NCBI GenBank assembly: GCA_005888745.1
Contig: VBBS01000027.1
Span: 55,045-119,044, forward strand
Reading direction: 5' to 3'
Length of the DNA stretch: 64,000 nt
Origin: Candidatus Bathyarchaeota archaeon
GTDB lineage: Archaea; Thermoproteota; Bathyarchaeia; 40CM-2-53-6
Shown: one piece after another, positions 8,233 through 54,336 of the stretch
Layout of the letters: each line of letters starts with the position of its first letter
Numbering within the stretch: position 1 is the first letter of the stretch
Notes under the pieces: model-generated
The model's input: the letters and a program-made list of their open reading frames with translations, nothing else
What the model was told of the DNA's origin: nothing
Database searches by the model: none
Translations under genes and position numbers: made by a program

Positions 8233-11200
8233 TTGTTCTCCTCCCTCGAGGGCAGGGACACGATCTGACTGCTGCCCTTGTCGATGAAGACTCCGAACAC
8301 CCTCTCCGCCCTCGATATTGTCGTATCCTTGAGCGAGATTACTATGAACTGGGACATGATACTCCTCGTCCGAAGGAGGGTCGCTAGGCGTTTTGCGTTT
8401 AACACATCCAAGTGTGCGTCAATCTCGTCCATTACGTAGAATGGCATGGGATGGATTTGTTGGAGTGCTAGAAGGTAGCAGACCGTTGAGACAGACTTCT
8501 CTCCTCCACTCGCGCTCCCAATCGTAAGCTCTGTTTTTCCGGGGAACTGAAGCAGGACGTCGAGTCCGCCTTCAAACGGGTTTTCAGGATTGTCCAGGAC
8601 CATTCTTCCGTTTCCCTCACCAGTCATCTCGCGAAAAATGCTCTGGAATGTCTCGTTGACCTTGTGGTATGCGCTCATGAACGTGTCAAGCTTCTTCCTC
8701 TCGAGCTCGTTCATGAAGTCGAGGATAGCCAGCTTCTCTCTTTCGAGTTCTCCGATCCTAACTGAGAGATGTTTGTATCCTTCTTTCTGTGATTCGTATT
8801 GTTGGGCAGCGAGCTGGTTGATAGCACCTATCTCGTCCCGTTCCTGTTCGAGGACGCGTTTCATATCTTCAGCCTCCTTGATGAGATCCGGGTGAGTCTC
8901 GAGCGGCGTCTCGAATCCAAGGCCTCTAAGTTGTCCTTTGAAGATTGTTAGTTGAGCGTCGACTTCCCTTAGGCCCGCCTTTAGATCGGTCACGCTTGCA
9001 TTGAGTGGATCCATCATTTGCAGAAGTTTCCGAGTTGCTTTTTCGACTTCCACAAACTGTTCTTCGTACTTCTTCCTCTCATCCCCAACGCTGTCCAAAT
9101 TTCGGACCAGCCGCTGCTTTTCCTCGTTGAACTTTTTCATCTCTTTCTCCAATGTTTCGAGTCGTTCGTGCGCTTCTTTGGCTCGGGCCTCTTCGCGATG
9201 AATCTCAGAGTCAAGCGAGCGCAGTTGTATTCGGATCTGGTCGATTCCCGGCCTCAGGGTCTCGAGAGTAGACTGTTGGGAGGAGAGACGTGTTTCTAGC
9301 TCGAGCTTCTCTCGGAGAATGAGTTGGTTCTCGGTGGTGGCTTGGTCTCGCTCCGTTTCGAGTTGAGAGAGCGCTGACCTTCTGGAATCAATCCTCAGCC
9401 TCGTTCTTTCCTCTTCTATGACCGCGAGCCGCCTCTTCATCTCCGCTTGTTTCTCCGCGGTCTCCTTCAACAAGACTTGTTCTTTCGCCATGGAGTTCTG
9501 GAGGCTGTCAATTCGCCGGGTCGTCTGTTGCAAGAATGTTCTTGTTCTCTCGAAACTCTTCTTGGCAAGTTCTACGTCCCTTGCCAAGGCCTCTCGGGTC
9601 TTGCTCGCGGATACTCGGTCTTCCAACAGCTCGTTTAGCTCAATCTCGATACGGTCAACGTCGGACCGTGAGCGTTGCACAACGGTCTCCAGCGATTTCA
9701 CTGTTTTCTCGAGGCTTTCAAGTGCAGTGGATCGGGGAACTAGGTTTGAGATCTCGAGCGGGGCTCTATAGTAGCCGCTCTCGAGGCCTCCTCCTGGCTC
9801 GTAAAGGTCTCCGCTGGTTACGACGCATCTTTGTCCCTTGGATGCTGTCAGGAACGCTGCTCTTTGCGTCGTGGCGAGTACAGTATCGCCGAAGACGAAT
9901 TTGACAGCGGGGGCAACTGACTTGTCGGACCGTATTACCTTCGAAAGCGGACCAATTATTCCGGAGACGTTGCCAGCGTCGGGCTCCAGATCCGAGAGTT
10001 CAAGATCTTCTATCGGAACGATCTTGACGCGTCCAAGCTTAGTACGTTTCAGGCTTTCGACGCACCGGATTGCTACCTCGAGGTTTTTCACAACTAGGGC
10101 TTTCATCCAGCCGGCGCTGGCTGCCTGTATTGCCTTACGGTATTCTTCGGGAAACTTGACGAGATCTTCTAGACGGCCGTAGACGCCTTTCAGAGCGCCT
10201 TCATCAGCCATCTCTTCGATCTTCTCGATAGCTTTGTCTTCTGCTCCCATGCTGTCCGCTAGGATCATTTGTGTGTTGAATTCCACCACGGTGACTCTTG
10301 CCTTCTTTGCGACGTCGAGGGCTTCGTCGATCTCTTTTCTGCGCTGGTCCTTGAGTTCACTGTATTCTTTTGTTTTCTGCTCGATTGATTCGAGCCGTTT
10401 TTCCTCTTCCTTCTGAAGTTTCTCCATTTCGCGGATTCTATTCTTCAGCTCTTCTGAGAGCTGGGCGAACTCTTTCTGGCGGGCTTCGAGGGTTTGCAGA
10501 TGGCTGGCGGTTAGGTCGAGTTTTGTCGAACTGCCCTTGCTTTGAGCGGTTAGGTTTGAAAGTTCCTTTCCCAGGCCGTCGATCTCGTCCTGGACTTCAC
10601 GCAGTTTCTTGGCGTCGAGGTTGAGAGACGATCGGGTGTCGGTAAGCTTTTGGCCGATTTTTTCGACCTTGAATGTGGAATCCTCTAGCTTGTCCTCTAG
10701 GATTTTCTTGTGTGAATGGAGACTTTTGATCGAGCTGGCAAGTGGTTTGACTGAGGTTTCCATCTCTTCCGCCTGTTTTGTGAAGGCTTCGCGCTGTCTT
10801 GCGCGGGTTGTGACCAGGTTCTTCGTTGTTTCCGCGGCGGATTTTGCTTCGACGATGCCCTTGCTGGCTTCTGCGATAAGTCTTTCGAGATCGAAGAGTT
10901 CTTGGTTTCCCTGGGTGACTATTTTCTCTTCGAAGCTTCGTCGGTCTTGTTCGATCTTTGCTCGCTGTTGAGTTAGGTCTTCTCTTTCGTGTCTCACCTG
11001 AGAGAGCTTGACCTGTTCCTGCTCGAGGGTCTGTGACATTTCCTGATGCCGGTTTTCGAGTGCAAGGATCTGGGCGGAGAGGATGCGCGCTTGCTGGCTG
11101 TTTATCTCGGTCTTGAGAAGATTGAACCTGAGAAGGTCGTTTCTTTCTCGTTCCAGCTGTTCTATTCTCTGTCTCACCTCATCAACTCTCGCAGCGGCGA

Positions 11201-41263: not shown

Positions 41264-41956
41264 TTGCTCACCGAGTCGCAGTCAGAGATGCTTGGGATAC
41301 TGTTCGGAGATGGGTCGATGTCTGAGAATCACAACTCCGTTCAGATCGTCATAACCGGTCACAAATTCGATGACGTAGAGTACCTAATTGGCCGCGTAGG
41401 TCCGATGTTCGCGGAACTCTTTGAAATGCCCCTCAAGGTACATCTAGTGAAAGATGAAAATACGATGATCCTCTACGCTTACTCCAAACGAATTGCCCTG
41501 ACCCTTCACGAATGGGGAATGCCTTTTGGCCGAAAAAAACTGGCCTGGCTCACACCGCACGTCGCATTGGATGAAGTATCTTTCGTCAGAGGCTTATTCG
41601 ACACAGATGGCTGTGTCTATCGCAAGTATGGCCCTTATTTGCAAATCCAGTTTAAGTTCGCTTCCCTTTCGCTCCTTGAGTACGCGAGGGAGTGTCTGGT
41701 AAGACTCGGCCTGAATCCCACATCGATCAGGTGCGACGATACGAAGTTCAGGTTCTATCTCAGCAGACAAGCCGAGGTAGACCATTTCTTTAGGGTCGTA
41801 GAACCCAAGAACCCAAAGCATCTTAATCGTTTCCAAAATGCTTCTCGGAATCGGTCCTACCGCCCATACACACATCGTCCTGAAGCACTCAGAAGAATTG
41901 GAAACCAACCAAGCCTTATAGGACCAATTCTGTGGAAAACACACTCGGTGGGGTAA
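41264..41956 (+). CDS. free-standing LAGLIDADG homing endonuclease (double-motif)
   Basis: Two motifs: MLGILFGDGS and VRGLFDTDGC. It ends 27 nt upstream of the tRNA-Trp gene. Confidence 0.8.
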   Translation: MLTESQSEMLGILFGDGSMSENHNSVQIVITGHKFDDVEYLIGRVGPMFAELFEMPLKVHLVKDENTMILYAYSKRIALTLHEWGMPFGRKKLAWLTPHVALDEVSFVRGLFDTDGCVYRKYGPYLQIQFKFASLSLLEYARECLVRLGLNPTSIRCDDTKFRFYLSRQAEVDHFFRVVEPKNPKHLNRFQNASRNRSYRPYTHRPEALRRIGNQPSLIGPILWKTHSVG

Positions 41957-43170: not shown

Positions 43171-43665
43171 TTGAGTAGGCCTTCAAAGCAGGTAAGCACT
43201 TCCAAGACCACTCTCTCCAGTCAGATGATGCCTGTGGACGCCAATCCGATGGGAAACGTGCACGGGGGCACAATTCTCAAACTTGTCGATGTCGCCGCCG
43301 GAGTCACGGCCCTGCGACATGCGAGAACTATTGTGGTCACCGCAAGCATCGACCGTATGGACTTTTACCATCCAGTCTATGTCGGCAACCTTCTCAACTT
43401 CAAGGCCTCAGTCAACTACGCTGGAACAACCTCGATGGAAGTCGGAGTAAGGATAGAAGCTGAGGACCTGAAGACTGGTAGAATAACACACACCGGCTCA
43501 TCCTACCTCACCTATGTTGCTATAGATGAGAACGGACAACCAGTCGAGATTCCCGACGTCATCCCGGAGACACTTGACGAAAAACGACGCTGGAGAGAAG
43601 GAAAAAAGCGAAGGGCCGAACGCCTCAAGATCCTACAAGATCGAAGGAGCAAGGGCAAGGCCTAG
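43171..43665 (+). CDS. acyl-CoA thioesterase (hotdog fold, YciA/ACOT-like)
   Basis: ANPMGNVHGGTILKLVD...TASIDRMDF..PV.VG....A.V.Y.G.TSMEVGV. Confidence 0.8.
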   Translation: MSRPSKQVSTSKTTLSSQMMPVDANPMGNVHGGTILKLVDVAAGVTALRHARTIVVTASIDRMDFYHPVYVGNLLNFKASVNYAGTTSMEVGVRIEAEDLKTGRITHTGSSYLTYVAIDENGQPVEIPDVIPETLDEKRRWREGKKRRAERLKILQDRRSKGKA

Positions 43666-43677
43666 GGTCGACAAAGA

Positions 43678-44562
43678 ACGAAAGTCGCAATTGTAGGGTT
43701 CGGCATGATGGGCCGGCAGATAGCCCAAGTATTCGCCCAAAATGGCCACGAGGTCGAGGCCACGGATGAGGATCAGCAAGCACTGAAGGCGGGGCTCAAC
43801 GAAATAGCAGACGGGCCCTACGGATTGCACGCGGCTGTTTCAAAAGGAAAACTGGCTGCAGAGCAAGCTCACAGGACTCTAGCAGCCATCAAGACAAGAC
43901 CCGAGCTAGCGGATGTTTGCAAGAACTCGACTCTTGTGATCGAGGCAGCCTTCGAGGAGCTGCAACTCAAACAGAATCTGTTTCACAGAATTGAATCTGC
44001 TGCGCCACCAACTGCGATCATAGCATCAAACACTTCAACCTTGAGCCTGGACAAGATCACCCAAAGAATCTCAAGGAAGGACAGAACGATTGGAATGCAC
44101 TTCTTTAATCCAGCCCAGCTCACAAAACTCGTCGAGATCGTCCGAGGAACGTCGACATCACCTGAAACACTAGAGAAAGCGTCCCAAATCGTCCGGGAGA
44201 TCGGTAAGACCCCTATCCTCGCCCAAGATGAGCCTGGTTTCATCGCCAACCGTCTCGGACTCACCCTCTACATGGAGGCTTCAAGACTGCTAGAGGATCG
44301 TGTCGCAAGTCTCTCTGACATCGACACGTGCATGAGACTCGGATACAACCATCCAATGGGACCCTTCGAACTAGCCGACTTCGTCGGACTTGACACCAGA
44401 CTTCGGAATCTAGAATCACTCTACAAGTCAACGAATGAAAGTAAATGGATACCACCTCAGATTCTAAGAGAGATGGTCCAACAAGGATACCTCGGCGACC
44501 CTGCTAGAAAGAAGACGAGCAAGGGCGGATACTACGAGTATCTCCGGATAAAGCGAGGATAA
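43678..44562 (+). CDS. 3-hydroxyacyl-CoA (3-hydroxybutyryl-CoA) dehydrogenase
   Basis: The HADH family core is present (NTSTLSL, HFFNPA). The Rossmann beta1-GxGxxG element KVAIVGFGMMG starts upstream of the first ATG (43705). ACG 43678 directly precedes KVAIVG. Confidence 0.85.
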   Translation, partial: TKVAIVGFGMMGRQIAQVFAQNGHEVEATDEDQQALKAGLNEIADGPYGLHAAVSKGKLAAEQAHRTLAAIKTRPELADVCKNSTLVIEAAFEELQLKQNLFHRIESAAPPTAIIASNTSTLSLDKITQRISRKDRTIGMHFFNPAQLTKLVEIVRGTSTSPETLEKASQIVREIGKTPILAQDEPGFIANRLGLTLYMEASRLLEDRVASLSDIDTCMRLGYNHPMGPFELADFVGLDTRLRNLESLYKSTNESKWIPPQILREMVQQGYLGDPARKKTSKGGYYEYLRIKRG

Positions 44563-44611
44563 GAAAATCCCAACCCTTTATACAGAACATAAGCCGTGTC
44601 AACTCCACTGG

Positions 44612-45016
44612 TTGTTATTTGGTGTGTTAACTTCGTTCGTCTCCAGCCGTTACCTTCGAAGTATGACTCTTCACATGTTAGGCGGTCGTCGCATGAACCT
44701 GTCACGTTGGGATGAGGGGGATGACTCCGATCAGGTGACGGGTCAGAAATGGGATAGCCGGTTGGCTGGCCACCGTAAAATCCTTGCTTGGCAATCGGCC
44801 AAGTTACCACGCTATGGGCGTGAGGGGGCGGTTGAGGTTCGACCGTTCCCTGCCAAAAAGAGACTACATGTCTCTGAGGCGCAAGGGCTCGCAGGTGAAG
44901 CAGTGAAGAGGAACCCGCCGACGACGGTAATCCTCCGAGCAGATGAGAGCAAGTCTAGTCCCCCAGCAACGGAAGACTCGACAGAACCCAGAACACAACC
45001 CACAAACCATCGATGA
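44612..45016 (+). other. unassigned segment: either a 134-codon ORF of no recognisable family or a structured RNA
   Basis: The ORF is open across the whole HADH-ECH gap and stops 3 nt before the ECH start. The same segment has complementary GT-rich 5' (44610-28) and AC-rich 3' (44992-45008) ends plus several local hairpins. Confidence 0.25.
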
Positions 45017-45019
45017 TGA

Positions 45020-45793
45020 TTGCTGTACACACACATTCTAGTTGAGACTGAGCCGCCTATCGGAATCATCCGACTGAACCGTCCGAAAGCTCTCAACGCC
45101 CTCAACTTCGAACTTATCCAAGAAACAGTGGAGGCACTCGAAGGCTTCGACAAAGACGACAGGATCAAAGCGACGATCTTGACAGGGGGAGACGACGCCT
45201 TCTCTGCTGGAGCAGACATCAAGGAACTAGCGGAAGCGACTCCTGTCACCTTGATCGAGGAGAACAAGTTCGCCCTCTGGGATCGCTTGAAGAAGATCGC
45301 AAAGCCGATCATAGGAGCGGTCAGCGGCTACATCTACGGAGGAGGATGCGAACTGGCAATGAATTGCGATATCATCATTGCATCCGAGACCGCACGATTC
45401 GCACAGCCTGAAATCAACATCGGAATAATGCCCGGAGCTGGCGGGACACAGCGTCTCACAAGAACCATCGGAAAGTATAGGACAATGGAGATGGTTCTAA
45501 CCGGACAACCCATGACCGCGCGAGAGATGGAGAAACACGGTCTCGTCAACAGAATCGTCCCCGTCGAGGCCTACTTCGATGAGGCACGCAAACTCGCCAT
45601 GCAAATCGCCCAGAAAGCCCCCATAGCCACACGGCTAGCGAAAGAGGCGGTGCTGAAAGCTCTCGACACACCGCTCGAGGAAGGGCTACAATTCGAGAGG
45701 AAGAATTTCTACCTCCTCTTCTCAACAGAGGACATGAAAGAGGGAATGAAAGCCTTCACGGAAAAACGGCCCCCCAGATTCAAAGGACGATAG
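45020..45793 (+). CDS. enoyl-CoA hydratase (crotonase family)
   Basis: ITLNRP-type start (IIRLNRPKALNAL), FSAGADI, GGGCELAM and the active-site Glu regions. Confidence 0.85.
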   Translation: MLYTHILVETEPPIGIIRLNRPKALNALNFELIQETVEALEGFDKDDRIKATILTGGDDAFSAGADIKELAEATPVTLIEENKFALWDRLKKIAKPIIGAVSGYIYGGGCELAMNCDIIIASETARFAQPEINIGIMPGAGGTQRLTRTIGKYRTMEMVLTGQPMTAREMEKHGLVNRIVPVEAYFDEARKLAMQIAQKAPIATRLAKEAVLKALDTPLEEGLQFERKNFYLLFSTEDMKEGMKAFTEKRPPRFKGR

Positions 45794-48077: not shown

Positions 48078-49235
48078 GTCTTAGGCCGCATCGGAATCGT
48101 TGGAGTTGGACATTCAAAGTTCGGAAAAAGGAGCGACGCCTCCCTCCGAGAGCTAGCATTCGAAGCGTACAGTTCCGCCCTAGATGACGCCGACATCGAC
48201 TCTTCAAAAATAGACGGTTCAATAGTTTGCTCCGCCACTCACTACGACAAGCAACGATCGCCTGCAGGTGTTGTTGCGGAATATCTCGGACTCAATCCCC
48301 AACCAACATTCAACGTTGAGGCAGCCTGCGCCTCCAGCGCTGTTGGCCTTCGGACCGCGTGGGCGCTTGTCTCATCAAAACTTCATGATGTGGTGGCCGT
48401 TGTGGGGGTGCAGAAGATGACCGAACTCTCCTCGGAGGAGATCCAGGAGCTCATGGGCAGAGCAGGGGACGTCATGTGGGAGTCTCCCTTCGGAACAACA
48501 ATGCCCGCATACTACGCCTCCTATGCTAACGCCCACATGGCCAAGTACGGAACTACAGAGGAACAAATGGCGCTCGTGTCGGTGAAGAACCGAAAATACG
48601 GATCCAAGAATCCTAACGCCATGTTTCAAAAACCCATCCAATTGGAAGAGGTCCTAAAATCGCGAATGGTATCTTATCCTCTAAAACTATACGATTGCTG
48701 CGCCAATGCTGACGGGGCGGCATGTCTGCTCATTACTAGTGCCGAAAAAGCAAAGAAAATTTCTGATAGACCCGTATGGATCTCCGGGCTTGGCCTGGCT
48801 TCGAGTCCCATGTCGCTTGCTGGAAGAAAAGGTCCATTGACGAGTTTCGATGCCACAAGAAATGCGGCGAGAACGGCATACGAAATGGCCAATATCAAAC
48901 CACACGACGTACATGTGGCGGAGGTTCATGACTCTTTCTCGGTAACAGAAATCATCAATTATGAAGACCTCGGATTCGCACGACCTGGAAGGGGTGCTAA
49001 GCTTCTGGAAAACCAAGGCACGGAGCTCGGCGGGAGAATCCCCGTCAACATCGACGGAGGCTTGATTTCCAAAGGCCATCCAGTCGGAGCCACAGGCGCG
49101 TCCCAGATCTTCGCATTGGTCAAACAACTACGGGGGGAAGCGGGTAGCGTTCAGGTCGACGGCGCTAAGATTGGTCTCGCACAGAACATAGGGGGAATAG
49201 GAATGTACTGCTCCGTTACGATCTTGCGCTCATGA
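48078..49235 (+). CDS. thiolase (SCP-x / archaeal acetyl-CoA C-acetyltransferase type); start codon unresolved
   Basis: The frame is open from 48063. The N-terminus RIGIVGVGHSKFGKR and the catalytic-Cys region NVEAACASS lie upstream of the first canonical start (GTG 48390). The C-terminal GHPVGATGA is also present. The start given is approximate (GTC 48078, TTA 48081 or ATC 48090). Confidence 0.85.
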   Translation, partial: VLGRIGIVGVGHSKFGKRSDASLRELAFEAYSSALDDADIDSSKIDGSIVCSATHYDKQRSPAGVVAEYLGLNPQPTFNVEAACASSAVGLRTAWALVSSKLHDVVAVVGVQKMTELSSEEIQELMGRAGDVMWESPFGTTMPAYYASYANAHMAKYGTTEEQMALVSVKNRKYGSKNPNAMFQKPIQLEEVLKSRMVSYPLKLYDCCANADGAACLLITSAEKAKKISDRPVWISGLGLASSPMSLAGRKGPLTSFDATRNAARTAYEMANIKPHDVHVAEVHDSFSVTEIINYEDLGFARPGRGAKLLENQGTELGGRIPVNIDGGLISKGHPVGATGASQIFALVKQLRGEAGSVQVDGAKIGLAQNIGGIGMYCSVTILRS

Positions 49236-49281: not shown

Positions 49282-50208
49282 TTGCAGGTGGACATTCAAG
49301 AGTTGACCCCCATTCAAAGCTTCGGCAGAAGAATTCGAGCCTATGATAAAGCCACACGCCTCGCAAAGGAAGGTCGCCCTGTCACTGAAATCTCGAAAGA
49401 GACGGGAACGCCTGACGCTACCATCAGGGGATGGCTCGTAAACGGTCGAAAACCTTGGACCCGCTGCGAACTCTTCAAACCAACGTACTCTGATCAATTA
49501 ACATATGTTATCGGTGTTTACATGGGAGACGGCTCGATTTCCCGATGGAGAAATCGTTTTTTACTGCGATTAGATGTCAAAGACAAAGAATTCGCCGATA
49601 AGTTTTCTTCAACATGCGCACATGTTCTGGGTAGGAAACCATATTCTGTGAGGCATGTCAGGGATAGGGACACATACGAGACTATCATTTCAAACGCGTC
49701 TTTCTGCAAGTTCCTCAACCGAGGCCTCACCCACCTGGATCGGTATGTACGGGAGCATCCCTCTGGCTTTGTTAGAGGTTTAGCTGATAGCGATGAGTGC
49801 CCCACTGTGACAACAACAAAAAAGCGGGGCAAACCCTGGTTCTTCGTCCAAGTTGTAGTAGCAACATCCAAGAGCATACGCTTACTGAGCTATACTCGGA
49901 CGATCCTGAGGGAATGCCTCGGACTCAAAGCGACGCTAGTGTACAAAGGCAAGCCAAGACCCAGTGTGTTCAAGAACAAGTTGCTCCGTTCAAGAAAGAG
50001 GGTCTTTGACCTTAGGATATCGCGCTTTGGTGACGTGAAACGATTCTCCCGGGTTGTTGGTTTCGAATTGGCTCGGAAACAAGAGAAGCTTGCCGCTGCT
50101 ATCTTCGTCCGTGAAGGATTTGGTTCTGGTCAGGATGCGGTGAAAGAGTGGACCCGTCGCTGGGAGCATGGCACCACTGAGTGGATTCTCAAGAAAGGAG
50201 TGGACTAG
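49282..50208 (+). CDS. LAGLIDADG homing-endonuclease-like protein with N-terminal HTH
   Basis: Motifs YVIGVYMGDGS and FVRGLADSDEC. The N-terminal EGRPVTEISKETGTPDATIRGWL is HTH-like. It sits between the thiolase and DUF35 genes. Confidence 0.7.
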   Translation: MQVDIQELTPIQSFGRRIRAYDKATRLAKEGRPVTEISKETGTPDATIRGWLVNGRKPWTRCELFKPTYSDQLTYVIGVYMGDGSISRWRNRFLLRLDVKDKEFADKFSSTCAHVLGRKPYSVRHVRDRDTYETIISNASFCKFLNRGLTHLDRYVREHPSGFVRGLADSDECPTVTTTKKRGKPWFFVQVVVATSKSIRLLSYTRTILRECLGLKATLVYKGKPRPSVFKNKLLRSRKRVFDLRISRFGDVKRFSRVVGFELARKQEKLAAAIFVREGFGSGQDAVKEWTRRWEHGTTEWILKKGVD

Positions 50209-50212
50209 GCAA

Positions 50213-50620
50213 TTGGGTTTTGAAAAGTTCGGGAGATTTGGTTATGTCTCCCAGACCAAGATCAACCCCTTGTTATCCTATCTGGAAAAGGGGCAGATTG
50301 CCGCGACCAAGTGCAAGAAGTGCGGGAGAACGTACTTTCCACCAAGAGCCGAGTGCCTGGACTGCCGCCACAGTACGATAGAATGGGTTGTAGTGGACGG
50401 GAGGAGCAAACTGATCACATTCACCCAGGTTTTCTTCGCACCACCCGCCTTTCAGCACGAAACCCCGTACATGCTAGGACTTGCGGAACTCACGAATGGG
50501 CTTCGCGTATTCGCGCCTGTCAGTCCTGCAGTGGAAAAGGAGCAACTCAAACCGGGCGTCGAGCTGACCTTGAAGGTTGCAAAAGGCTCACGTGACAACT
50601 TGTACTACTGGCTCGAATGA
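50213..50620 (+). CDS. DUF35 OB-fold/zinc-ribbon protein (thiolase partner)
   Basis: CKKCGRTYFPPRAECLDC zinc ribbon followed by an OB fold. TTG 50213 lies 5 nt after the endonuclease stop. The track ATG 50168 would overlap that gene. Confidence 0.8.
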   Translation: MGFEKFGRFGYVSQTKINPLLSYLEKGQIAATKCKKCGRTYFPPRAECLDCRHSTIEWVVVDGRSKLITFTQVFFAPPAFQHETPYMLGLAELTNGLRVFAPVSPAVEKEQLKPGVELTLKVAKGSRDNLYYWLE

Positions 50621-53758: not shown

Positions 53759-54336
53759 CTAAGGCAAGCTAAACGTCGAAAGCTACTATTTTCCAACAGG
53801 ACCGTTCAGGCGTATGAATGGGAATTGTAACCTATCCATCCATCAAGGAGTGACCGAGCTCGTGAGGCAGCGAGAAAGCGCCCCCGCAGAACGTCGAATA
53901 AGTCAATAATGCTGAAGTGTGTCGCAAGAGGGCACTGCGAAAGGCTCGGACTGGGAACTTCGACTAGTCTAGCTGGCCTTCAAAATGGCTCGTTTCGACC
54001 CTTAGACGGAAATGAAGCTCCAGCAGATTCATCAACGTCGCAATCTCGTCGAGGTCTTCGGCATTGTCCATCCGCCTGAGGGGTTTCCCCTTTCAAGCCA
54101 CCGACGCATACGATTTCCAATCAGCTGCCGCTAGCACAGGGATTATGGTTCTGCTTAGTTTTGGTTGGATAGTTGTTGTTGGCTTGTTGACTTAGCTTGC
54201 CTCCATCGTCATCAGGGAGAGTGACCTAACCCCTCTCAATCCGACGAAGAGTTAACAGTGCCTCATTTTCTCATGCATTGTTCTCTACCAACACGAAATT
54301 ACGTGAACGGAAGACAGAAAAAAGGAGATGATCGAA

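Follow-up and report, generated by a model that had tools for sequence, protein, structure and literature searches.

Which element lies between the HADH gene, ending with the TAA codon at 44560–44562, and the next gene, that for enoyl-CoA hydratase (ECH), is the question raised by this part of the window (the whole stretch of DNA analysed, 64,000 nt). Both neighbours have been looked at in their own right: at the thioesterase/HADH boundary an ACG codon stands where relatives have ATG, a TAG read-through fusion of thioesterase and HADH was rejected, the two genes of relatives being in different frames, and an exact-protein look-up of ECH retrieved only near-identical contigs, of no comparative value. 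The gap was correctly delimited by a first-pass annotation, as was the 134-codon frame that fills it (ORF134, from TTG 44612 to TGA 45014–45016, its stop 3 nt ahead of the ECH start TTG at 45020). This annotation hesitated between an orphan protein gene coupled to ECH, which it favoured, and a structured RNA, and it did not recognise the entire segment as an insertion that has inverted repeats and has duplicated its target. The best reading of the data is that the segment is a copy, of about 400 bases, of a mobile element common in soil Bathyarchaeia, which has lost the gene for TnpB and has kept a folded homologue of the guide-RNA region. The features of the locus are collected in Table 1.

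Table 1. Features of the insertion and its surroundings (positions in the window)
Feature	Position	Strand	Basis or remark
TATA box TTTATA of the ECH promoter	44577..44582	+	motif AACCCTTTATACAGAAC conserved ~33 nt 5' of the ECH TTG in L006–L022
Target-site duplication, left copy, 8 bp, CAGAACAT	44583..44590	.	direct repeat; relatives without the insert have CAGAACAC once
Inserted non-autonomous element, 398 bp	44591..44988	+	absent in L006–L024; boundaries from homology and column identity
Left end, terminal inverted repeat AAGCCGTGTCAACTCCACTGG	44591..44611	+	degenerate here; family consensus GGCACTGTCAACTCTTCGG
134-codon open frame (pseudo-ORF)	44612..45016	+	variation across copies; no Pfam match
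Middle-region hairpin CCUGUCAC...GUGACGGG	44699..44741	+	covaries; many U-G pairs
Conserved 3' domain, candidate ωRNA scaffold	44808..44988	+	reaches the last base of the element; pair statistics and tnpB homology
Invariant block GGGCGGTTGAGGTTCGACCGTTC	44826..44848	+	within stem-loop 44823–44851, with G-U pairs
Hairpin AGAGAC/GUCUCU	44859..44875	+	in gene-less copies only; absent in tnpB-bearing copies
TnpB C-terminal coding relic EAQGLAGEAVKRNPPTTVILRADESK...TEP	44876..44988	+	in the ORF134 frame
Long helix 44887–93/44944–50 around inner helix 44908–17/44922–35	44887..44950	+	kept in tnpB-bearing copies
Right end, terminal inverted repeat CGGAAGACTCGACAGAACC	44970..44988	+	comparison of copies
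Right copy of the target duplication (44989–96, CAGAACAC) and host flank	44989..45008	+	predicted guide if TnpB uses the RNA
Second relative, 116 nt, same ends GGCACTGTTAACTCTTC...CTAAGCAGAACC	54147..54262	-	inverted-repeat search

In related Bathyarchaeia, the homologous locus consists only of a spacer of about 60 nt, in which a TATA box is followed about 30 nt on by the ECH TTG start. The comparison of relatives places the insertion in the window at 44591–44988; it is missing from L006–L024, and the empty site itself has been seen in L006–L013. Insertion took place 8 bp past the TATA box in the ECH promoter; the last three bases of this box (ATA) occupy the position of an NTR motif directly 5' of the duplicated target. 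Copies in other contexts are homologous to exactly 44597–44988, and in 88 aligned copies column identity rises from about 30% to more than 80% at the 5' end (approximately 44592–44596) and drops straight after 44988, beyond which flank conservation is at background level. The terminal inverted repeats are imperfect, the consensus GGCACTGTCAACTCTTC and the reverse complement of the right end (GGTTCTGTCAAGTCTTC) matching at 14 of 17 positions, and it is between 44591–44611 and 44970–44988 that the true terminal complementarity is found. A different pairing of the segment ends had been claimed, but its 3' arm (44992–45008) is not part of the element and belongs to host spacer also found in uninserted relatives, and it is therefore not meaningful. 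The degenerate form of the left end (CTCCAC) is common to the orthologous copies in L218 and L219 and therefore argues for a single ancestral insertion in these two and the window; an independent re-insertion at the ECH site in L218/L219 was rejected on this ground.

The element belongs to a dispersed family, present on at least 120 metagenome contigs and in different gene neighbourhoods, with 41 distinct sites at which 8-bp duplications are recognisable. Being 398 bp long, non-coding, ended by inverted repeats, flanked by an 8-bp duplication, matched by an empty site in relatives and represented by many dispersed copies, it is MITE-like. BLAST revealed no second full copy in the 64-kb window; the left end of the 116-nt relative is gone in strain L002 through a 104-nt deletion. 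The core 21-mer had no match among viral contigs. Apparent cases of two copies per contig (L110 and L163) were left out as palindromic assembly artefacts, and a candidate 3.5-kb element in L211 proved spurious, its interval being the gene for a 1786-aa surface protein. The 41 insertion sites have a target motif in common: T occupies position -2 in 40 of them and A or G position -1 in 40, T is found at -3 in 29, and there is no base bias at other upstream positions or downstream. In 40 of the 41 sites this (T)TR motif abuts the 5' side of the 8 bp that are duplicated and so precedes the left end by exactly one duplication length; it belongs to the target, because empty sites in relatives carry it. 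For the 3' flank to act as a guide, a TnpB target-adjacent motif (TAM) would have to be at this position, and we infer that (T)TR is such a TAM. The TAMs of characterised TnpBs have 4–5 nt, whereas the motif here has only 2–3 nt.

A small protein gene (107–134 aa), translationally coupled to ECH, would be in keeping with an open frame that ends so close to the ECH start, with its prediction by gene callers and with the existence of at least 584 seemingly homologous protein clusters. However, nucleotide diversity by codon position is flat (0.243/0.250/0.238), without codon periodicity; 87% of the indels have lengths not divisible by 3, and of 86 copies chosen irrespective of their frame most have it interrupted. 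The predicted “homologous” proteins begin at varying starts and read past the end of the element into more than 40 different tails, each specific to an unrelated flank, and the stop codon of ORF134 itself sits in the host spacer. No Pfam match was obtained for ORF134 or two antisense ORFs, and within the element only the last ~37 codons resemble a real protein, namely the C-terminus of TnpB. The coupled protein gene is thus effectively refuted, with next to no probability left, and the “hypothetical protein” met repeatedly in public protein sets goes back to a spurious ORF in what is really a mobile element.

Elements of the same family, of 1.26–1.31 kb, do encode TnpB, an RNA-guided nuclease, and the conserved 3' half of the insert has its homologue in the 3' end of tnpB together with the right end (44826–44988 aligned to L138). 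tnpB-bearing siblings with the same target duplications have been found in L138 (which also has the same ends), L137 (with an intact TnpB of 401 aa) and L213. The C-terminus of the TnpB family reads ...EAQGGAVEAVKGNPTPTVI(P/L)(G/R)VDA(P/S)K...DLTEP, and at least 1489 clusters of this family have C-termini matching the ORF134 relic. TnpB is the sole protein encoded by the longer relatives with the same ends, and the left end of some tnpB-bearing elements is a poor inverted repeat. A gene-less copy and tnpB sequence occur together on one contig in L213, L133, L121, L099, and L107, tnpB being partial or fragmentary in the last three. There is no tnpB gene within the 64-kb window, and the tnpB-bearing siblings sampled, among which no cognate TnpB for the gene-less subfamily was found, share only 50–60% identity with the gene-less consensus over the 3' domain. 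In 1.5 Mb of related contigs, no transposase with matching ends was detected. A search of the literature on TnpB or ωRNA MITEs of Bathyarchaeia found nothing specific.

The 3' half of the element contains a conserved RNA structure of the + strand that covaries, and a check of covariation across element copies found compensatory changes. In the 3' domain, the 62 predicted pairs are 92.5% canonical, against 33–42% when the partners are slid, and 26 of them show compensatory change; with the middle hairpin included, the resulting structure of 73 pairs has 95.5% of its cells paired (32–42% with partners slid), with both-side changes in 18 pairs and 70 cells, a level reached by none of 500 shuffles in which the kinship of the copies was ignored. 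The + strand is favoured because GU/UG cells (485) far exceed AC/CA cells (66). In the window copy 3 of the 62 pairs are broken, which is typical for the family. The fold of the single sequence is unexceptional (z = -1.5 for the + strand and +0.36 for the - strand) and uninformative alone. RNAalifold run on all 84 copies, divergent subfamilies included, gave a collapsed structure because of alignment gaps, and the main subfamily and the 3' domain were taken instead.

Individual helices illustrate this conservation. The three internal hairpins of the first-pass annotation are all present, although two of their 5' arms were placed one position off (GGGGGCGG is at 44824–31 and not 44823–30, AGAGAC at 44859–64 and not 44860–65), while the coordinates of CTTGGC/GCCAAG were correct. 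Across copies, two of them are upheld: AGAGAC/GTCTCT shows strong compensatory variation (for example, pair 44863:44871 is GC in 30 copies, AT in 29, GT in 9, and CG in 6), and the inner part of GGGGGCGG/CCGTTCCC, which includes G-U pairs, is invariant. CTTGGC/GCCAAG is not upheld, a C-A mismatch being present in most copies and compensation in none. The invariant block encodes GRLRFDRS in intact tnpB genes, and as further evidence the peptide GAVEVRPF occurs in 115 of 120 independent protein hits. Compared with tnpB, the AGAGAC/GUCUCU insert causes a frame shift. The long helix is maintained in L118, L138, L142, and L194 by largely compensatory flips (GC>CG, CG>GC, UA>GC or GU, CG>GC or AU, UA>GC), with one mismatch, in L142. 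Since AGAGAC/GUCUCU and the 5' helices are missing in tnpB-bearing copies, some of the conserved structure may serve a function other than TnpB binding. By its location, from the 3' end of tnpB to the right end and on the tnpB strand, with tnpB deleted here, the 3' domain would fall where an ωRNA is expected.

A structured RNA had been the second option of the first-pass annotation, and it was right in kind, a covarying structure being present on the + strand, but not as to the identity of the RNA, which is that of the 3' region of a TnpB element and not of RNase P. RNase P RNA, or some other structured RNA with a housekeeping role, was suggested by several hairpins and by strings such as ACAGAACC and AGATGA, the letters of which are indeed there. 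However, Rfam searches of the window (gathering threshold), the region (E≤10), and two other copies (E≤1) returned only weak chance matches of the C/D-box and CRISPR-repeat kind; apart from these, neither the RNase P models nor any other family matched at E≤10. Moreover, ACAGAACC is the terminal inverted repeat, and the sequence is multi-copy, has a target duplication and is missing at this locus in sister genomes; dispersal and insertion polymorphism refute this reading.

The two remaining alternatives accept the insertion and differ on what has been conserved. An inert, decaying miniature transposon, in which uneven conservation would reflect recent spread or gene conversion and not RNA function, agrees with the inverted repeats, the 8-bp duplication and the many copies devoid of a gene, with the lack of tnpB in the window and of a cognate TnpB among the sampled siblings, and with the degenerate left end of the window copy. 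On the other hand, column identity is 50–80% in the 5' part and 90–100% at 44876–44955, a stretch that was not part of the block by which the copies were gathered, and the helices are kept by compensatory changes. Orthologous copies from three species are 89–93% identical in the 3' domain against 59% at the adjacent third codon positions of ECH, the genes neighbouring these copies being near saturation at synonymous sites. We consider inertness unlikely. An RNA exapted by the host, which would act without TnpB as a small RNA in its own right or, within the ECH operon, as a structured 5' leader or riboregulator, would suit the sense orientation of the insert, its place between the ECH start and the conserved TATA box, the retention of the insertion in at least three species, where it is constrained, and the helices unique to gene-less copies. 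Nevertheless, more than 40 unrelated sites, with no neighbouring gene in common, carry this sequence in conserved form, and the 5' flanks show no promoter bias beyond the TTR motif; the constraint therefore follows the element and not the ECH operon, and exaptation appears quite improbable, more so than inertness.

It is rather likely that the segment derives from a TnpB element that has inverted repeats and makes target duplications, and that it is a MITE-like copy reduced to the ωRNA and served by TnpB in trans. Judging from the sequence, the + strand would be transcribed, at the ECH locus probably from the displaced ECH promoter, so that the element would form a leader of about 430 nt on the ECH mRNA. 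By analogy with ωRNA architecture (PMC10055086, PMC10691335), the 3' domain may fold as an ωRNA scaffold and read into the flank CAGAACACAACCCACAAACC, which would be the guide. A TnpB from sibling elements could then use this RNA in trans to cut unoccupied alleles, in which NTR is followed by a match to the guide, and recombination after the cut would restore the element; the element would thus be retained because empty alleles are cut and the copy is restored. Movement to new sites would depend on a separate putative transposase, recognising the inverted repeats and making 8-bp staggered cuts beside NTR. More tentatively, and with some doubt, we propose that in soil Bathyarchaeia a large family of transposons with inverted repeats and target duplications took up TnpB–ωRNA homing, and that hundreds of ωRNA-only copies parasitise TnpB in trans under long RNA-level selection. 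Under this proposal, the target choice of the transposase (NTR plus 8 bp) and the TAM of TnpB would have co-evolved, and because of this the guide derived from the flank would still abut the TAM in the empty site after the 8-bp duplication; alternatively, TnpB/ωRNA could bias where insertions occur or survive. For some ωRNA-only copies, the one at ECH being an example, transcription would start from a host promoter that the element has captured.

The understanding of TnpB–ωRNA systems is most advanced for IS200/IS605 elements, whose insertion produces no duplication. In the family described here, the carrier of the RNA-guided module seems to be an element that has inverted repeats and duplicates 8 bp, with a candidate TAM one duplication length upstream, and the family offers a natural test case of how RNA-guided homing and staggered-cut transposition can be reconciled. 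A 2026 review of OMEGA systems (PMC13565253) regards the rarity of TnpB alongside DDE-type transposons as an open issue. At the ECH locus, the insertion has put about 400 nt between the promoter and its gene and has yet been retained in at least three species. As a source of tools, the family might provide a compact TnpB of archaeal origin (about 400 aa), together with a defined scaffold and a candidate TAM that is very short.

Among known systems, the ωRNA (reRNA) of TnpB in IS200/IS605 elements (ISDra2, Geobacillus ISGst; OMEGA) is a structured RNA of the tnpB strand that overlaps the 3' end of tnpB, extends to the right end and takes its guide from the flank, and the present family resembles these elements in the short T-rich motif 5' of the target and in the structured, covarying homologous region. 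IS200/IS605 elements insert directly 3' of a target of 4–5 nt, whereas here 8 bp are duplicated between the motif and the left end; in addition, the copy lacks tnpB and matches no Rfam family. Terminal inverted repeats and target duplication, both present here, are absent from IS200/IS605 and IS607 (PMC4810608, PMC13565253). With its clear inverted repeats, 8-bp duplication and a motif 8 bp from the left end, the element is not a member of IS200/IS605, PATEs included. PATEs (palindrome-associated transposable elements) are gene-less IS200/IS605 derivatives that often encode ωRNAs used in trans (PMC10055086); they are also protein-less and multi-copy, keep the RNA and need TnpB and transposase in trans (PMC10055086). 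However, PATEs have subterminal hairpins, lack inverted repeats and duplications and are moved by Y1 TnpA. In the literature on related systems, no mention was found of a large ωRNA-only miniature population or of the motif one duplication length upstream.

The 8-bp target duplication is shared with IS6/IS26 elements and their MITEs. The first 8 bases of the left end (GGCACTGTC) are those of the IS26 inverted repeat (GGCACTGTTGCAAA, confirmed in NZ_CP023725), but only 9 of 19 positions match and the similarity stops after about 9 nt; inverted repeats of the IS6 family, which the ends of the element resemble, are of the GG(C/T)(A/T)CTGTTGCAAA type. Neither the IS26 transposase nor any IS240/IS26-type DDE transposase was detected by tblastn in 1.5 Mb of loci and the window. 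We know of no IS6 elements carrying TnpB. Another parallel is Fanzor, the eukaryotic TnpB, in which nuclease and ωRNA reside in a target-duplicating transposon, and the guide starts with the duplicated bases because the carrier transposon makes this duplication (PMC13565253, PMC10530073); these elements are eukaryotic or viral, belong to another protein clade and are autonomous or large. Finally, TnpB clades associated with DDE transposases have been described that have inverted terminal repeats, together with solo TnpBs mobilised in trans (Altae-Tran et al., 2023, PMC10691335). The present family, from soil Bathyarchaeia, differs in that a linked DDE transposase was not found in 1.5 Mb of related contigs; it is like those clades in that TnpB lies within a symmetrical-ended element and tnpB-only copies share their ends with the other family members.

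The gap between HADH (3-hydroxyacyl-CoA dehydrogenase) and ECH (enoyl-CoA hydratase), the genes 5' and 3' of the segment, was confirmed, and the 134-codon frame described there (ORF134) is present. The two proposals of the first-pass annotation for this gap, an orphan protein gene and an RNase P-like RNA, both fail, although the feature itself is real. An ECH protein search placed the window among soil Bathyarchaeia MAGs. The HADH-ECH spacer measures only ~60 nt in every relative compared (L006-L024, with 72-91% DNA identity in ECH) and runs from the stop codon through a conserved BRE/TATA-like block, AACCCTTTATACAGAAC, and ~30 nt to a TTG start. In the window this spacer is found in two halves, TTTATA-CAGAACAT and, from 44989, CAGAACAC-AACCCAC..., with ~398 nt between them. 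Since the spacer is split and CAGAACAC is single-copy in the empty allele (the same site without the insert), the segment is almost certainly a transposon insertion with an 8-bp target duplication, whose left and right copies differ here by one mismatch. The ECH TATA box, formerly ~35 nt from the start codon, now lies 9 nt 5' of the element; because it has been displaced and no TATA-like sequence is found near the element 3' end, ECH is probably transcribed through the element, the + strand RNA of which would probably be a ~430-nt leader of the ECH mRNA.

Coordinates of the element, its parts, its relatives and neighbouring features
Feature	Location	Strand	Length	Remarks
HADH stop	window 44560-62			TAA
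Left spacer half	window 44577-90
Element	window 44591-44988	+	398 bp
ORF134	window 44612 to 45016		134 codons
Middle-region hairpin	window 44699-44741
3' domain	window 44782-44988			includes candidate ωRNA scaffold
Corrected 5' arm	window 44824-31			GGGGGCGG
Region aligning to L138	window 44826-44988			tnpB 3' end + right end
Corrected 5' arm	window 44859-64			AGAGAC
Extra hairpin	window 44859-75			gene-less copies
Long helix	window 44887-93 / 44944-50
ECH start	window 45020			TTG
HADH start region	window 43663-43710			first ATG 43705; ACG 43681-83
LAGLIDADG-domain ORF	window 41264-41956			free-standing
Thiolase C-terminal half	window 48390-49235
LAGLIDADG-domain ORF	window 49282-50208			free-standing
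zf-ChsH2/OB gene	window 50168-50620
116-nt relative of element	window 54147-54262	-		same ends (GGCACTGTTAACTCTTC...CTAAGCAGAACC)
Deletion in L002	window 54230-54333		104 nt	between ACCTAA / AACTAA microhomologies
tnpB-bearing sibling	L138:1018-2328		1311 bp	same inverted repeats + 8-bp duplication (TTG|CCCGTAAG)
Adjoining elements	L213:303-1951			gene-less copy on minus strand
Direct repeats	L168:2556-2796, 9846-10086		241 nt	98% identical, 7.3 kb apart
GNAT acetyltransferase gene	L218:1276-1716, L219:2173-2655	opposite		between HADH and ECH promoter

The element belongs to a dispersed family. A translated search with ORF134 returned at least 584 protein clusters of 64-92% identity, every one labelled 'hypothetical', with variable starts and a shared ...TEP followed by more than 40 unrelated tails; the copies occupy unrelated gene neighbourhoods, and the DNA similarity between the window copy and the others covers exactly 44597-44988. 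Scanning metagenomes for an invariant 22-mer located the family on at least 120 contigs. When 88 copies are aligned together with their flanks, identity per column climbs from ~30% to >80% at the 5' end (~44592-44596) and drops again immediately past 44988. Nearly all copies start with GGCA-CTGTCAACTCTTC and end with GAAGACTTGACAGAACC, an imperfect inverted repeat of 17-19 nt, and recognisable 8-bp direct repeats flank many of them (41 distinct sites qualify). Two contigs, L110 and L163, seemed to hold double copies; these were discarded as palindromic assembly artefacts. The window also contains a 116-nt relative with no clear target duplication around it, the left end of which is taken out by a deletion in strain L002. 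In contig L168, each of two direct repeats contains the invariant core and the 5' part of a divergent member of the family before ending abruptly; they may be copies that have been truncated, or they may mark the limits of a larger composite unit.

The origin of the family is indicated by tnpB-bearing siblings. The frameshifted ORF of the L138 sibling matches the TnpB family and a Cas12f1-like TNB domain, and L137 encodes an intact TnpB of 401 aa, in which RuvC-like D, E, D motifs and a CxxC...CxxC zinc ribbon can apparently be recognised by eye. This clade (at least 1489 clusters, ~400 aa, from soil 'Crenarchaeota/Bathyarchaeota' MAGs) has the C-terminus ...DRDxVAAxNLSRRGRLRFDRS...EAQGGAVEAVKGNPTPTVI(P/L)(G/R)VDA(P/S)K...DLTEP. 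The C-terminal stretch of ORF134 (EAQGLAGEAVKRNPPTTVILRADESK...TEP) is that of TnpB, read in the same frame; the invariant block upstream is in another frame than tnpB because gene-less copies have the extra hairpin. Gene-less copies and tnpB sequence occur together on contigs L213 and L133, and with partial or fragmentary tnpB on L121, L099 and L107. In L213 the gene-less copy directly adjoins an element with tnpB, at the left end of the latter. Both have an 8-bp duplication of their own (AATAGACC and GTCTATTC), and the two duplications overlap, which suggests that the insertions were nested or side by side at a common TTG-proximal site. In TnpB elements, the ωRNA scaffold extends from the tnpB 3' end to the right end and the flank serves as guide (PMC10055086, PMC10691335). 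Very probably, then, the element derives from a TnpB element and retains the ωRNA-homologous region.

A protein-coding role for ORF134 is ruled out by flat nucleotide diversity across its codon positions (0.243 / 0.250 / 0.238), by indels of which 87% are not multiples of three, and by interruption of the frame in most copies of a sample collected regardless of frame; frameshifted variants (e.g., ...NRRLDRT) occur even among the protein hits, and a Pfam search of ORF134 gave no match. The 'hypothetical proteins' of these clusters (at least 584 in public collections, 95-199 aa) are spurious translations of the element continuing into the flanks, an annotation artefact that recurs in soil metagenomes. 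The structured-RNA proposal stands as regards a covarying + strand structure and falls as regards RNase P: no RNase P family, nor any other credible match, was obtained with Rfam at E<=10 for 44400-45200, and the entire window gave no match at gathering thresholds. The single-sequence fold is unremarkable (z = -1.5 on the + strand, +0.36 on the - strand). In the 3' domain, the 62 predicted pairs are canonical at a rate of 92.5% across 101 sequences, vs 33-42% with slid partners, with compensatory change at 26 pairs; the window copy breaks 3/62, which is typical for the family. The 3' domain together with the middle-region hairpin was then assessed on 59 aligned copies of the whole element. By the pair count that the tool itself gives, the paired cells amount to 95.5%, both sides change at 18 pairs (70 cells), and the covariation score is 0.104 vs 0.02-0.05 with slid partners. 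None of 500 shuffles matches the observed values; since the shuffle ignores relatedness among copies, the slid control and helix flips weigh more. The long helix is kept in tnpB-bearing L118, L138, L142 (one mismatch) and L194, with largely compensatory flips; the AGAGAC/GUCUCU hairpin is absent from these four. GU/UG cells outnumber AC/CA cells (485 vs 66) and several G-U pairs are invariant, which places the structure on the + strand, that of tnpB. All the hairpins noted previously exist, with two 5' arms shifted by one base; CTTGGC/GCCAAG is unsupported across copies, and the proposed end pairing uses host spacer external to the element.

Two other species, L218 and L219, have this insertion at the identical position and with the same degenerate left end (CTCCAC), so that these copies and that of the window are orthologous. 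When the window is compared with L219, identity is no more than 59% at third codon positions of ECH; along the element it amounts to 74-79% (5' part), 84-90% (middle) and 89-93% (3' domain). Constraint tracks the element over many unrelated sites, which argues against a purely local host role. The GNAT acetyltransferase gene of the L218/L219 locus is missing in the window.

Insertion sites share a motif. Relative to the duplicated 8 bp, position -2 is T and position -1 is A or G, each in 40 of the 41 distinct sites, and position -3 is T in 29, with no base bias elsewhere, including the 3' side. The tnpB-bearing elements have the same pattern 5' of the duplication; in the window the motif is ATA, which belongs to the TATA box, and empty alleles have it too. 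Once the element is precisely lost, the flank into which the RNA reads (N8 and following bases) directly adjoins the motif. The target-adjacent motif (TAM) of a TnpB must lie directly 5' of the guide-matched flank, and we infer that the 3-base motif is the TAM. Somewhat more likely than not, the element would work as a trans-acting ωRNA.

Other features of the neighbourhood deserve mention. The conserved Rossmann strand of HADH, (M/T)KVAI(I/V)GFGMMG, starts 5' of the first ATG. Among the window, L006-L024, L218 and L219, ATG (eight) or TTG (L022) precedes KVAI in 9/15 genomes, and ACG in the window, L218, L219, L011, L012 and L013, where no canonical in-frame start follows the preceding stop; ACG may therefore be a non-canonical start that has been conserved. 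As other genomes have HADH and the thioesterase gene upstream of it in different frames, the in-frame TAG of the latter is a coincidence. Of two LAGLIDADG-domain ORFs, the second lies between the thiolase C-terminal half and the zf-ChsH2/OB gene, and given this position there may be a split or an interruption in the thiolase gene.

The element is thus MITE-like and ωRNA-retaining, derived from a TnpB element of archaea that has inverted repeats and target duplications; a literature search found no description of this family. The left end is identical to the inverted repeat of IS26 over the first 8 bases (the IS26 repeat was verified in a plasmid record), and it shares the 8-bp target duplication of IS6, of which this length is typical; as a search of 1.5 Mb of related contigs found no transposase of the IS6 type, the IS6 link is a lead only. 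The classical TnpB carriers, IS200/IS605 and IS607, are without inverted repeats or target duplications (PMC4810608, PMC13565253), and therefore the family is a member of neither; likewise, its gene-less copies do not strictly count as PATEs. TnpBs have been described in inverted-terminal-repeat elements with linked DDE transposases, and so have solo TnpBs that are mobilised in trans (PMC10691335); gene-less ωRNA-bearing IS605 derivatives used in trans are also on record (PMC10055086).
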